Shown: positions 2,853 to 39,790 of the stretch, one piece after another
Layout: every line of letters starts with the position of its first letter
Position numbering within the stretch: position 1 is the stretch's first letter
IMG/VR virus record: IMGVR_UViG_3300045988_153358
Reading direction: 5' to 3' (one strand)
Length of the DNA: 48,302 nucleotides
Origin: a virus
Taxonomy: Duplodnaviria; Heunggongvirae; Uroviricota; Caudoviricetes
Made by a program: the position numbers and the translations under genes
Notes under the pieces: model-generated
The model's database searches: none
The model's input: only the letters and a program-made list of their open reading frames with translations
What the model was told of the DNA's origin: nothing

Positions 2853-2928
2853 GGCCCCTTAGCTCAGTGGTTAGAGCAGGCGACTCATAATCGCACGGTC
2901 ATCGGTTCAAATCCGGTAGGGGCCACCA
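2853..2928 (+). tRNA. tRNA with anticodon CAT (Met elongator type, or Ile if lysidine-modified), includes 3-prime CCA
   Basis: cloverleaf folded by hand: 7-bp acceptor stem GGCCCCT/AGGGGCC, D-arm GCTC/GAGC, anticodon loop CTCATAA, T-arm ATCGG/CCGGT with TTCAAAT loop. Confidence 0.85.
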
Positions 2929-30541: not shown

Positions 30542-31158
30542 TGGCATTCAGAATGAGTGAACAATCACGTACCGTAAAAATTTATAACCTGCTGGCCGGA
30601 ACTAATGAGTTTATTGGTGAAGGTGACGCATATATTCCACCTCATACAGGGCTGCCAGCTAATTCTACAGATATCGCCCCACCGGAAATTCCTGCTGGCT
30701 TTGTGGCAGTTTTTAACAGTGAAAATGAATCGTGGAATATTGTTGAAGACCATCGTGGTAAAACGGTCTATGACGTGGCGTCGGGGGACGCATTGTTTAT
30801 TTCTGAACTCGGACCGCTACCAGAGAATGTCACCTGGTTGTCGCCAGCAGGGGAGTATCAGAAGTGGGACGGCGTATCCTGGGTGAATGATGAGGAAGCA
30901 GAAAAACTGTTTCGGATACGGGAAGCGGAAGAGAAAAAGGCAAGGTTGATCCAGGAAGCAACAGATAACATCGCAATTCTGCAGGATGCAGTTAATCTTG
31001 AAATAGCAACAAACGAGGAAAATTCACAACTGGATTCCTGGAGAAAATACAGAGTATTAGTGAGTAGAATTGACACCAGTACAGCTCCGGATATCGTATG
31101 GCCAGAGCTGATGAATCAGGGTTATGTTCGGGAGGACGAGCAGATAACTTCAGACTGA
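30541..31158 (+). CDS. tail fibre assembly protein
   Basis: 205 aa directly after tail fibre gene; typical N-terminal pattern. Confidence 0.8.
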
Positions 31159-31685
31159 AATTTAGTGATGAATGTTGAATCATCAGGAATATCATGCAAT
31201 ACCAATGCATGAGCACCTATTGTGACATTGTTTCCTATACGCACTTTGCCACCAAGAATGGTGGCATTACAACCAATGGTCACATTATGCCCTATAACAA
31301 TATCCATATCATTAAATTCCCCGCGAAGTCCAATAGTTACTCCGGGCTTAATTGAACAATTTTCACCGATTGTTACTTTGTGACCGATAACAACACTGTT
31401 GAGATAAGAAATATCAAAGCCTTTCCCTATATTTACAGTTAAAGGGACTGTTACATTATATTTATCAAGAATGAAACGTTCTATTTTTCCCGCAATCTTC
31501 CGACAGTATCCGCCTTTATCAAAAAGGTATTTGGCTATGCGCCACCAAAATAAATAACGAACCCTTCTATGTTTTATTGCGCGAACAATTGCCTTTCGCC
31601 AGGAGAAAGGACGCTCGCTACCGATTACTTCATAGTGAATACAGTCTTTAAGTTCATTAATATTCATATCTTTATTATTCAGCAT
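31122..31685 (-). CDS. hexapeptide-repeat acyl/acetyltransferase (left-handed beta-helix family)
   Basis: repeated [LIV]-G-x-x-x-x hexapeptides ([43 protein letters not shown]). Confidence 0.75.
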
Positions 31686-32155
31686 AAGATAATCATGTGA
31701 CCAATTATTGTAATAATTTTAATGGTATGTTTCTACTGGCTATCCAGCGTGTCTGATATCCAGTAACAAATCGTCAACACGGGTGCAATCAAATGGTGAG
31801 TGTTAAGACTGACCACTTATTACCAGGTATGAGTGGCCAGCATTAAATCAGAACAGCCCTTTAACTGAACTGGCCGCGCTGTTAAGGGATGATGTCACCT
31901 TATCTTTGAAGCCGGACAGCATATTGCTGAACGATGAGTTTACCGCAGGTTTCTGGCTGGGAATCATTGACTGGAGTTAGGCCAGTAGTATGATGCTCGC
32001 AAAACGAGATCCAATTTAGATCCTTTTACTGGTGGATTATCGTTCGATCAGTGAGAGACTTCGTGCATGACCGAAAGTGTTGTGGTAGAGTTCTCTTAAA
32101 ACCACGTAACGTGGTTATGATTGTGGGTGTCTGGTTGGAAAGTGACCAGATATGG

Positions 32156-32268
32156 AAACAAAAAGCCCGCAGATAAATCTGCGGGCTTCTTGCGACATCC
32201 ACGGAAAACCAACAATTAACCATGGGCGCCTCGACAACTCCCATTATACGTTGGTTTTCCGTGGACGC
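32156..32268 (-). ncRNA. candidate CopA-like antisense RNA region for repA control
   Basis: 16-bp perfect inverted repeat 32198-32213 / 32250-32265 with about 36-nt loop; 10-bp hairpin 32163-32188 followed on the minus strand by a U-run. Confidence 0.45.
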
Positions 32269-32280
32269 AAGAGCGAACAT

Positions 32281-33129
32281 ATGGATAGACCAATGCCGTC
32301 TCTACGTTCAGCTTACGTTTGTAATTTGTCGCCGGAGTTCCAGCGTCCAAAGCACCATACGCACAAGCTGCCGCTGGTGTTATCTGATGCTTTACAGCGC
32401 ATTAATGGGCGTGATCTTACGTGTGAGGTTGCGTTCTACGTTAATCAACCGTCAGAGCGGAAGCGCCGGATAAACGAGCATCGTCGTCGGGCGATTAATG
32501 CTGTGATCGCTGCGATTTTGCACCATGTAAACATCATTTCTAAGCGGGTTCTGGCTAGTGCTGAGGCGTTGGCTGATTTTTGCGGCCTGTCTACCGTATC
32601 CGAAGCTGGGAACAAGTCTATAACGCGCTGTACAAGGGCGTTGTCGCAACTGAAAGCGTTAGGTTTTATTGATTATGAACGTCGCTGGGATCGGGTGAAT
32701 AAACAGTATTGGCCAGCGAAAATAGAGATTCGTGATCAACTGCTGGAAACCGTTGGTATTACTGAACAAGCATGGAGACGTGCGGTTAGCCAGAAACTTA
32801 ATTACTTCAATGCGAAGAATAGCGAACGGCTTAAAAAAGCGATAACGGAGGCTGATTATAAGCGTATTGTTATTCAGGAGCAGATGGAGAATGTATGGCG
32901 TCAGAGGAAGACGGCCAGAGAGATAAAGGCAAAACAGAAAGCAGCGGAGAGAGCTGCGCGTCTTGTTCGGGAAAAGGGAGAGGCCGAACTTCGTCATCAA
33001 ATCACCAGAGAGGTTAGTCAGGAATTTGCTGATGGCATGTATCCTGGTGCTGACCTTGCATATTTACGATCCCTCGTTGAGCAGCGTTATAACAGGTTAA
33101 GAAAGACCTGGAAATCACTCCAACATTAA
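32281..33129 (+). CDS. repA: plasmid replication initiator RepA, IncFII RepA1-like
   Basis: central region (GLSTVSEAGNKSITRCTRALSQLKALGFIDYE) closely resembles R100/R1 RepA1; ORF extends upstream to 32152 but that stretch holds the stem-loops. Confidence 0.75.
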   Translation: MDRPMPSLRSAYVCNLSPEFQRPKHHTHKLPLVLSDALQRINGRDLTCEVAFYVNQPSERKRRINEHRRRAINAVIAAILHHVNIISKRVLASAEALADFCGLSTVSEAGNKSITRCTRALSQLKALGFIDYERRWDRVNKQYWPAKIEIRDQLLETVGITEQAWRRAVSQKLNYFNAKNSERLKKAITEADYKRIVIQEQMENVWRQRKTAREIKAKQKAAERAARLVREKGEAELRHQITREVSQEFADGMYPGADLAYLRSLVEQRYNRLRKTWKSLQH

Positions 33130-33400
33130 CCCACCTGAATGATGAATCCGGTTTTACCGGAGGATTATCTACGTCGCAATAAAATATCTGTTCAAAAAAC
33201 AATCTAAATTAATTTTCTCTAAACCTGAACACAGCAAAAATATCGCCTTTACAGGCATCGGCTAATAAAGTTATCCACAGTTCTGATATGTATATGCAAA
33301 TGGTTTTTTATAATAGATGCACTAAACAAATAAATGCAAAATCACTTTCTTTTATTAAGACTTTCTTTATTTAACTTACGCAGGCTTTGCCTGTGAATAT
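33130..33400. other. putative plasmid-type replication origin region
   Basis: AT-rich tract directly downstream of repA with a perfect DnaA box TTATCCACA at 33271-33279. Confidence 0.5.
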
Positions 33401-38882: not shown

Positions 38883-39046
38883 TGTGATGATTCCCTTAAA
38901 GGTTAAGGATACTCACCACCGTCAGGTTCCAATCATTGGGTGGTGAGACGTGCAGGGTTGGAACTACCGGACACAATGACGAACCGGCGAGTCTTACGAC
39001 TCCCCCGCACGCCCCACCATAATTTGGGTGTAGCAGTGCTTTACGC

Positions 39047-39150
39047 ATAAAAAAACCGCTAACGCGGTATGCGCCATTGTGTCTACGGGGTTCCAATCCC
39101 GACCGTAGATTTTGCTACGGCTCGGAAAGTGTCCACCAATGGCGCATTCA
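39047..39150 (-). ncRNA. candidate c4-like antisense sRNA (5-prime end not determined)
   Basis: minus-strand hairpin ACCGC-GUUA-GCGGU plus U7 at 39049-39068; stem CCGUAG/CUACGG; GAUUGGAACC element repeated in the leader at 38925-38936 and complementary to 38954-38964. Confidence 0.35.
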
Positions 39151-39638
39151 TGTCAATACGGCGGGATTTTAACAGAGACAACCACATAGCGTGGGTTTAT
39201 TGGTAGGCAGAAACAAAAAAACCGCCCTATTGAGGACGGTTCTTTCGTGCTGATCGGATTCGCGGTCCTTTCAGCATAACGTCGTTGTATAAACAACCAC
39301 GCAAGCACAAGCAGCAAGTTAATTTTACCCAAAAGGTAATAATAGTCCACTATTATGCTTCAAAAAATTGTGGTTCTTGTTGTGCCTGCAAACTCACAGA
39401 TTGTGGGTAGGTTACTGATTTTGTGAAAATAAACGAGTTTTTTCGTTTAATTTCTTTCCTATTACTAATCTTAAAATAATCGTAAAATACCTGTGGACCT
39501 TCCCGCCGATTCGCACCCGGGCACCGACTTTAGGGGAGGATTCTCCGTTGCCGTACATGCAAGCACAAGCAGCCGTGCTTGCTCTCGCGTTGTTTTCGTC
39601 GGTGGGGATGCCGTGAAACGGCCTGTAAGGGCCATACA

Positions 39639-39761
39639 ATGAAAAAATACTGTATGTGTATTTTTATCGTTGTTACTGGGGCTTTGTTTACGCCACATGG
39701 GGAGGGTTGGAAGATTACTGATAACGCTCTGAATGTGACGATAAACATTAGCAGCAAGTAG
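39639..39761 (+). CDS. possible small hydrophobic peptide (40 aa)
   Basis: AAGGG Shine-Dalgarno 8 nt upstream; translation MKKYCMCIFIVVTGALFTPHGEGWKITDNALNVTINISSK; strong terminator follows. Confidence 0.3.
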   Translation: MKKYCMCIFIVVTGALFTPHGEGWKITDNALNVTINISSK

Positions 39762-39766
39762 CGATT

Positions 39767-39790
39767 AGGCCCCTTCGGGGGCCTTTTTTA
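39767..39790 (+). terminator. Rho-independent terminator with UUCG tetraloop
   Basis: AGGCCCC-TTCG-GGGGCCT followed by TTTTT. Confidence 0.75.

Follow-up and report, generated by a model that had tools for sequence, protein, structure and literature searches.

The question raised by this locus is how a phage-plasmid might keep its own copy number in check. The locus is the leader of repA in a 48,302-nt stretch of tailed-phage DNA (Caudoviricetes; IMG/VR record IMGVR_UViG_3300045988_153358), which in its full length is called the window below. RepA of the window is a member of the IncFII_repA family of initiators (Pfam PF02387, E = 3e-43) and shares ∼32% identity with classic IncFII RepA, over part of its length only. 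An initial annotation had noticed hairpins directly upstream of repA and read them as CopA/CopT-like control of the IncFII type. The kind of regulation it had in mind, antisense control of RepA translation by an element next to an IncFII_repA-family gene, is retained here, while the assignment to the CopA family and the structural detail had to be given up. We propose that the region is a copy-number control element of an IncFII_repA-type replicon, consisting of an ∼80-nt antisense RNA and a leader that refolds, and we regard this reading as fairly probable.

Hairpins upstream of repA and the predicted antisense RNA

Two hairpins lie upstream of repA, and they are real and go beyond chance.

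32189-32271, plus strand: hairpin of the repA mRNA in the ON state, with a basal helix (32189-32194/32266-32271) and a 16-bp helix (32198-32213/32250-32265)
32159-32192, minus strand: stem-loop II (SL-II), the rho-independent terminator of a predicted antisense RNA, followed by a U-run at 32162-32154

The arms of the 16-bp helix, TCCACGGAAAACCAAC and GTTGGTTTTCCGTGGA, are 100% complementary with 36 nt between them, and both the repeat finder and direct reading confirmed the perfect inverted repeat with a loop of ∼36 nt that had been placed at 32198-32265. The stem is lengthened by the 6-bp basal helix, in which CTTGCG pairs with CGCAAG. The second hairpin is G+C-rich, and its 16-nt arms are 94% complementary around a perfect core at 32163-32188. 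This core is the 10-bp hairpin of the initial annotation, and the U-run described for the minus strand was borne out as well: the minus strand reads TTTTTGTTT after the hairpin, the plus strand only CTTCTTGCG. The minus strand of 32150-32300 folds at -75.7 kcal/mol (z = -8.1), a value matched by 0/200 dinucleotide shuffles, and for the plus strand of 32001-32300 the fold has z = -7.8 against dinucleotide shuffles.

An antisense RNA that ends at the minus-strand terminator and controls the synthesis of RepA appears to be the best explanation for this arrangement. An end at this hairpin had already been suggested for an RNA of about 100 nt; the end can stay, and the length would shrink to ∼78-85 nt if transcription starts from the conserved promoter within the mRNA hairpin loop. 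The predicted RNA and its signals are the following.

32154-32238, minus strand: predicted antisense RNA of ∼78-85 nt, with a single-stranded 5' tail, SL-I, and the SL-II terminator with its U-run
32243-32248, minus strand: predicted -10 hexamer TATAAT, perfect consensus, in the apical loop of the mRNA hairpin
32265-32270, minus strand: predicted -35 hexamer TTGCGT, three of six consensus positions, at a 16-nt spacer
32194-32230, minus strand: stem-loop I (SL-I), recognition hairpin of the predicted antisense RNA, with the stems GGCG/UGUC and CCAUGG/CCGUGG and the apical loop 32205-32219

A predicted promoter and an intrinsic terminator lie opposite the rep leader and delimit a small structured RNA, the arrangement of antisense copy control in general, and the RNA predicted at 32154-32238 is antisense to the leader of an IncFII_repA-family initiator. 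Folded as a single sequence it reaches -41.1 kcal/mol (z = -6.8), and the order of 5' tail, SL-I, and terminator is predicted in all 22 distinct homologue sequences. The 16-bp repeat is not simply a CopT target, either. Of the big hairpin, the predicted antisense RNA covers the 5' arm only, and its promoter sits in the loop.

Relatives were collected by protein and pattern searches, which gave leaders of three kinds. Two of them, groups A and B/C, are compared here, and the third, with a PK-repBA element (L035 and L005), is taken up further below. Group A has the leader type of the window and comprises E. coli plasmids more than 97% identical as well as Salmonella, Klebsiella aerogenes, and metagenomic relatives; RepA identity is 81-85% for the latter three and ∼60% for relative L036. 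Group B/C (Citrobacter and others) has ∼60% RepA identity. In this group the distance from the homologous control module to repA downstream of it is 200-600 nt, and after the module comes a leader open reading frame (ORF) of up to 162 aa, whose stop codon overlaps the repA ATG as ATGA. This ORF looks like tap-like coupling with an unusually long ORF. In relatives L040 and L043 (1016-1504 in each) it comprises 162 aa, gives a weak IncFII_repA Pfam match, and its terminal ATGA spans the repA start. The Shine-Dalgarno sequence (SD) of repA in group B/C lies within a small hairpin whose sequence changes are compensated. Searching a plasmid database with the control region of group B/C gave no matches, and a contig search for relatives returned a Buchnera relative only, with an AT-rich leader that is not comparable.

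The most conserved block in both groups is the minus-strand sequence TATAAT(G/C)GGAGTTGTCGAGGC (32248-32228 in the window). Together with a -35 element CTTGCRT it is kept in 26 distinct sequences of the two leader types, with CTTGCRT 16-18 nt upstream of TATAAT in both; group B/C reads TTGCAT. The block occurs once in the window, and a role as a repeated protein-binding site was rejected for this reason. The hairpin arms that flank it are unrelated between the groups (TCCACGGAAAACCAAC/GTTGGTTTTCCGTGGA versus CATTGTCAGCC..GCCACAC/GTGTGGCCCTGGCTGACAATG), with pairing kept in both.

The initial annotation had pointed to homologues as the place to look for covariation, and it was found there. In the alignment of group A (A3), 97.5% of the cells are paired, compared to 30-44% in slid controls, and the covariation score was reached by 0/500 shuffles. 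Four pairs are changed on both sides, three of them in the 16-bp helix. In the terminator stem a single pair varies, with full compensation from A-U to G-C in 3/15 sequences (arms GCAGAT/ATCTGC and GCGGAT/ATCCGC), and group B/C has GGCCCGCTAAC/GTTAGCGGGCC at the equivalent position. On the minus strand the RNAalifold consensus consists of SL-I and the terminator with four covarying pairs. One of the SL-I pairs (18:41) occurs as GC in seven, AU in two, GU in two, and UG in one sequence, and the U-G and G-U forms are valid on the minus strand only. Moreover, three segments vary together, namely the 5' arm, the 3' arm, and the SL-I partner, which read CCACGG, CCGTGG, and CCATGG in the window, CCACAG, CTGTGG, and CTATGG in L003, and CCACCGG, CCGGTGG, and CCAATGG in L036.

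Within this conserved scaffold one short stretch changes rapidly.

32214-32219, no strand assigned: hypervariable stretch AATTAA, unpaired in both the antisense SL-I loop and the mRNA apical loop

It covers 6-9 nt directly 3' of the 5' arm and comes in eight alleles that differ in length, although the E. coli plasmids carrying them are otherwise more than 97% identical. Examples are AACAACAAT, AACAAT, AACTAA, AAAACAAT, AACAATAT, and AAACATAT, and another of the eight carries a 5-nt duplication. Salmonella, Klebsiella, and group B/C have additional loop alleles, and in group B/C the hypervariable stretch again lies within the apical loop of the predicted SL-I. The recognition loop thus varies between related plasmids. 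A conserved scaffold with a hypervariable loop is a classic mark of an antisense specificity and incompatibility determinant, and the stretch 32214-32219 is likely to be the determinant of specificity and kissing.

To place the element relative to its gene, the repA start has to be considered. The initial annotation had let repA begin at ATG 32281. In an alignment of 15 RepA homologues most sequences start at the position equivalent to ATG 32293 (MPSLRS...), which lies 12 nt downstream of ATG 32281 in the same frame.

32293-33129, plus strand: repA, IncFII_repA-family initiator gene, conserved start probably ATG 32293
31967-31994, plus strand: predicted repA promoter, TTGACT and TATGAT with a 16-nt spacer, 10/12 matches in the promoter scan

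Judged from this promoter, the repA mRNA would begin near 32001 and carry a leader of ∼280-290 nt. The promoter is kept in group A relatives, and relatives with ∼60% RepA identity have TTGACG-17-TAGAAT at the equivalent place. Public annotation by PGAP gives a RepA of 326 aa from the ATG equivalent to 32152 (4253-5233 in L001), and this ORF is open in the window, where it crosses the terminator and the large hairpin. The N-terminal extension is missing in the Salmonella, Klebsiella, and Citrobacter homologues, and the ORF is frameshifted in 4/8 E. coli loop alleles. A coding ORF from ATG 32152 was therefore rejected, and since half of the loop alleles shift its frame, we regard the long RepA as an annotation artefact. 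Two candidate leader peptides were rejected as well, one of 83 aa from ATG 32222, because this ATG is lost in L037, and one from ATG 32281, because its frame relative to repA is variable between lineages.

Genetic evidence comes from a preprint of August 2026, which defined the p-p47 family of 42-56 kb E. coli phage-plasmids (bioRxiv 10.64898/2026.08.19.745698). By backbone and replicon identity, and by plasmid CP032086.1 (94,204 bp), which is common to the matches of the repA region (H70) and to the preprint, the 48-kb window is a member of this family. According to the preprint, 14/15 sequenced high-copy mutants of a p-p47 member have changes 58-86 nt upstream of repA, either one of six G/C-to-T/A single-nucleotide polymorphisms (SNPs) or a 3-bp deletion, and the repA transcript level is unchanged in the copy-up mutants. 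In the same preprint, mutations just upstream of repA are reported to raise the copy number up to hundreds of fold and to cause beta-lactam heteroresistance, and the RNAs are called "predicted CopA/CopT", were predicted with RNAfold, and are interpreted by the R1 model (bioRxiv 10.64898/2026.08.19.745698). The preprint has thus put forward antisense copy control of the p-p47 family before, and with genetic support. With the 32281-type ATG as reference, the interval from -86 to -58 reads TCCACGGAAAACCAACAACAACAATCCAT in the commonest allele and exactly spans the 5' arm, the hypervariable loop with its (AAC)n repeat, and the first letters of the SL-I partner (CCAT). If the repA start used in the preprint is the 32281-type ATG, its copy-up interval is probably the structure upstream of repA in the window.

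A proposed refolding switch at the repA start

We propose the following course of regulation. The repA gene would be transcribed from 31967-31994 with a leader of ∼290 nt. An antisense RNA of ∼80 nt would be made constitutively, starting at ∼32235-32238 just downstream of the loop TATAAT (32248-32243) and ending at the hairpin and U-run 32192-32154, and it would offer a free 5' tail, SL-I with its plasmid-specific apical loop, and the SL-II terminator. Without antisense RNA, the leader hairpin of 16 + 6 bp would form, the repA start region would be open, and RepA would be translated (ON). Pairing of the antisense RNA would begin at the mRNA apical loop and proceed to the 5' arm, by which the 3' arm would be set free. 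The free 3' arm would fold onto UAUGGA...AGACCAAUG and bury the ribosome-binding region and the start codons of repA (OFF). A rising copy number would in turn lead to less RepA synthesis and less replication.

32249-32295, plus strand: predicted OFF-state hairpin, in which the 3' arm 32249-32263 pairs with UAUGGA (32280-32285) and AGACCAAUG (32287-32295)

This hairpin would bury both ATG 32281 and ATG 32293, and it encloses a mini-hairpin CGC-AAGA-GCG (32266-32275). When the antisense target is masked in partition-function folds, the repA start region of the window becomes less accessible, with a mean unpaired probability of 0.15 instead of 0.54. Such a drop occurs in 7/7 group A lineages, with 0.09 as the lowest masked value. 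The shape of the OFF hairpin is likewise common to 7/7 group A lineages (z = -2.2 to -4.8), and its 3' partners differ by lineage (AGACCAAUG, GCCAGCG, UUCAAC, CCAAC, and GAAUUCAACG). Group B/C offers the released 3' arm another possible partner, the SD and early codons of the leader ORF. From the predicted antisense 5' end it is ∼45 nt to ATG 32281 and ∼57 nt to ATG 32293. Because of this distance, and because no conserved leader peptide lies between, an R1-type steric block of tap does not fit, and induced refolding would be compatible with the distance to the start codons. We infer the existence and the ends of the transcript, the use of its promoter, and the refolding step from sequence and thermodynamics, by which a switch at the repA start appears plausible.

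Several points weigh against this model. The predicted -35 hexamer of the antisense promoter is weak, and the automatic promoter scan did not call the site; the promoter and terminator scan gives no support, since its rules demand a stronger -35 and a longer terminator loop. The antisense RNAs are predicted only, here and in the preprint alike (bioRxiv 10.64898/2026.08.19.745698). For group B/C, masking is predicted to lower SD accessibility only modestly, and in 2/11 sequences not at all. Single mismatches in the big hairpin disagree on the strand, with L004 favouring the plus and L039 the minus strand. The complete ON hairpin is far more stable than the OFF hairpin, and the kinetics of invasion therefore matter. 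SNPs in the 5' arm alone should weaken the ON hairpin, so that the copy-up effect would have to come via a damaged antisense RNA or its binding. Finally, the preprint leaves its repA start unstated, and the mutations would fall at 32066-32094 if that start is of the 32152 type.

The antisense RNA could also exist as described and act without any helix exchange, either in an R1-like manner, by hindering ribosomes or the start of a leader peptide, or by mRNA decay through RNase III cleavage, and the big hairpin would then be incidental or would present the target. The antisense elements themselves are well supported, the overlap of leader ORF and repA in group B/C resembles tap-repA, and the preprint reads its mutants by the R1 model (bioRxiv 10.64898/2026.08.19.745698). 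However, the window has no conserved short ORF between target and repA, the frame of the first ATG varies by lineage, and the antisense 5' end is too far from both start codons for a steric block. The unchanged repA transcript level reported in the preprint also argues against such a mechanism (bioRxiv 10.64898/2026.08.19.745698), which furthermore leaves unexplained why the OFF hairpin recurs with partners that change while the pairing stays. We therefore consider action without helix exchange unlikely.

Less probable still, and nearer to the picture of the initial annotation, is a longer antisense RNA of ∼120-150 nt that starts from a promoter in the first repA codons and holds the whole 16-bp hairpin. 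The full hairpin folds very well on the minus strand, and the sole stem mismatch of L039 is a U-G wobble on this strand and C-A on the plus strand; the wobble pattern of L004 is the opposite and valid on the plus strand only. Neither the automatic scan nor direct reading revealed a convincing promoter on the minus strand downstream of 32271, the stretch 32272-32300 is poorly conserved between lineages, unlike a promoter, and the perfect conserved TATAAT and its -35 lie within the repeat. That no regulatory RNA is made at all, and that the region is a bidirectional terminator with a protein site or chance palindrome, or codes for the N-terminal RepA extension that PGAP annotates from the open 32152-type ORF, is very improbable and appears largely refuted already by the homologue starts, by the loop-allele frameshifts, and by covariation with the pattern of RNA pairing, and it also conflicts with a loop motif that is single in the window and not iteron-like and with the copy-up mutations, which on 32281-type numbering of the preprint data fall here (bioRxiv 10.64898/2026.08.19.745698).

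Relation to known copy-control systems

With the refolding antisense element as the favoured reading, its relation to described systems can be addressed. The Rfam scan for CopA-type families that the initial annotation had named as a check was carried out, and CopA (RF00042) gave no match in the whole window at the gathering threshold, which is 60 bits for this covariance model, nor in 31900-32500 (600 nt) at E <= 10. A genuine IncFII replicon used as positive control, pMEX01, scored 98.3 bits for CopA beside its annotated tap. Beyond CopA, the Rfam search for this region gave sub-threshold, terminator-driven matches only (Thr_leader with 31.9 bits against a cut-off of 55, the tail of CsrC, and others), which are not meaningful.

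The window and CopA/CopT of R1 and NR1 nevertheless have much in common. In both a small antisense RNA from within the repA leader exerts, or would exert in the case of the window, negative translational control of an IncFII_repA-family initiator. Both RNAs have two stem-loops, the 3' one of which doubles as terminator. Loop mutations are copy-up, for the window on the 32281-type numbering, and 3' of repA there is an oriR, a probable one in the window, that includes a DnaA box. In CopA the major recognition loop is in the long 3' stem-loop (SL-II), where CGCCAA is complementary to UUGGCG of CopT. Unlike this, the predicted recognition loop of the window is in SL-I and not in the terminator hairpin, and the CGCCAA/UUGGCG motif is absent from both window loops, with an invariant UUUA-type terminator loop and the variable loop in SL-I. 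Homology to CopA in sequence or structure, tap, and copB are all missing. No conserved short ORF that could correspond to tap is found in the window leader; among the group A lineages, only the window and L036 have ATG 32281 in the repA frame. For copB, no same-strand ORF of at least 25 aa is present in 31700-32050, a search with a CopB hidden Markov model across the whole window not having been made, and what lies upstream of the repA leader is a hexapeptide transferase gene encoded on the other strand, with a hin/pin invertase in its place in relatives. Furthermore, the target in the window ends ∼45-57 nt from the start codons, and a three-element helix exchange is proposed instead of a steric block of tap.

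The Inc RNA and pseudoknot systems of IncB, IncI-alpha, and IncL/M plasmids (PK-repBA, RF01089) also represent antisense control of IncFII_repA-related initiators. The window differs from them by the lack of a UUGGCG loop and of a short leader peptide of the repY/repB type. PK-repBA gave no Rfam match in the window or in group B/C (L043), and a comparison by eye only, looking for an IncB/IncI-type pseudoknot in which the conserved loop block would pair with the repA SD, revealed no convincing complementarity. Two RepA relatives do have PK-repBA, L005 with 37% RepA identity (1855-1969, 56.7 bits) and L035 with 63% (1369-1489, 49.3 bits). Since they carry an IncL/M-type PK-repBA instead of the window module, control regions have been exchanged between closely related initiator genes. 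As judged by these comparisons, the window module appears to be countertranscript copy control in function and distinct from both CopA and PK-repBA.

The closest mechanistic precedent is RNAI of pSK41, from staphylococcal RepA_N plasmids. RNAI, ∼83 nt long, is an antisense RNA made up of a 5' tail and two stem-loops. It binds the rep leader ∼100 nt upstream of the start site, and according to the proposed mechanism a stem-loop induced by the binding sequesters the ribosome-binding site (Kwong et al. 2004/2006; PMC5703833). The window would share this sequestration logic, which the in silico folds predict for 7/7 group A lineages and weakly for group B/C. In contrast to the window, the pSK41 initiator belongs to the unrelated RepA_N family and the host is Gram-positive; there is no sequence similarity, and the mechanism in the window is predicted only. 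In pT181 and pIP501 the antisense RNA captures segment 1 and frees segment 2 to pair with segment 3 (PMC5703833), and three competing segments are also assumed in our model. However, the induced hairpin of pT181 and pIP501 is a transcription terminator, whereas the one predicted for the window lacks a U-run and lies over the start codons, which would make its effect translational. The unchanged transcript level of the p-p47 copy-up mutants, as given in the preprint, is likewise unlike the transcriptional logic of pT181 and pIP501 (bioRxiv 10.64898/2026.08.19.745698).

The "predicted CopA/CopT" of p-p47 belongs to the same replicon family as the window element and, given a 32281-type start, probably to the same region. 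The preprint assumes the R1 mechanism and its names and does not include the loop promoter, the hypervariable alleles, the helix exchange, the status as a separate family, or detection of the transcript (bioRxiv 10.64898/2026.08.19.745698). Our analysis adds the putative loop promoter, SL-I as the likely hypervariable recognition element, the proposed three-helix switch, and the corrected repA start. It also adds evidence that the module is distinct from CopA and swapped with PK-repBA among related RepA genes.

On this basis we tentatively suggest, as a possibility still short of a probable one, that the module represents a distinct, undescribed family of replication-control RNAs for IncFII_repA-type initiators. 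In such a family the antisense promoter would lie in the apical loop of the leader hairpin, and a three-helix exchange would bury the repA start. The recognition loop would be a mutational hot spot, including length changes of the AAC repeat, which lets co-resident phage-plasmids escape mutual control and yields clinically relevant copy-up variants (heteroresistance). The family would exist in two forms, a compact one directly on repA as in the window and one with a coupled leader ORF as in group B/C, and it would be swapped with PK-repBA-type modules among closely related RepA genes.

To our knowledge, antisense-induced sequestration of a start site is documented so far mainly for staphylococcal plasmids of the pSK41 type, and the window would, if the model is true, provide a Gram-negative case from the IncFII_repA family. 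The element would set the copy number of a widespread E. coli phage-plasmid family, and its architecture of strand, loop, and helices would predict which mutations are copy-up, create a new incompatibility type, or are neutral. The R1 model of CopA and tap would then be mechanistically unsafe to borrow for the p-p47 family, and a common mis-annotation of repA is corrected.

The phage-plasmid and neighbouring features

A repA region of 1.4 kb from the window matches 62 PLSDB plasmids, 59 of them at 95-100% identity and three Salmonella plasmids at ∼75%. The hosts are Escherichia, Salmonella, and Klebsiella. All matched plasmids are non-mobilizable and nearly all are 44-52 kb in size, with two exceptions of 32 and 94 kb. 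Three Yersinia myophages also match the repA region. A family member of 48,488 bp is carried by E. coli ATCC 25922. Because of these plasmid and myophage matches, together with tail-fibre genes and a C4/isrK immunity region in the window, we consider the window a phage-plasmid. The pSLy3 group was dropped as its home, as the p-p47 family does not cluster with pSLy3 (bioRxiv 10.64898/2026.08.19.745698).

At gathering level, Rfam matched C4 antisense RNA (38936-39024, minus strand, 77.8 bits) and isrK (39049-39121, minus strand, 67.7 bits), and the adjoining positions of the two suggest an immI immunity region of the P1/P7 type. Further gathering-level matches were a ryfA-like RNA (39493-39789, plus strand, 141.8 bits) and a tRNA (2853-2925, plus strand). 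The gene upstream of the repA promoter varies within the family. In the window (31122-31685, minus strand) and L001 it is the hexapeptide-repeat transferase, and many other members have the hin/pin-type DNA invertase there, beside alternative tail-fibre segments (3478-4032 in L002, 919-1506 in L004).

Downstream of repA, ∼140 nt after its stop codon, lies the sole perfect DnaA box of the window (TTATCCACA, 33271-33279), followed by AT-rich DNA, and this region is probably oriR in an IncFII-like position. Directly after the predicted start of the repA mRNA two GATCC sites are found 11 nt apart (32008-32023), which may represent a Dam/SeqA-sensitive control or a protein site; leaders of group B/C and the PK-repBA-type relative L005 have GATC clusters in the equivalent position. 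Further downstream, a small leader hairpin at 32100-32116 (AACCACGT-A-ACGTGGTT) is conserved in group A with changes in its loop, and group B/C has another hairpin (GCTACAAAACGTAGC) there. In L020, a metagenome contig (SKES01003805.1), the equivalent of position 32190 reads GGGCTTTTTGCG instead of GGGCTTCTTGCG, which gives a U-run on the plus strand too, and this variant hairpin could cause partial termination of repA transcripts as well.

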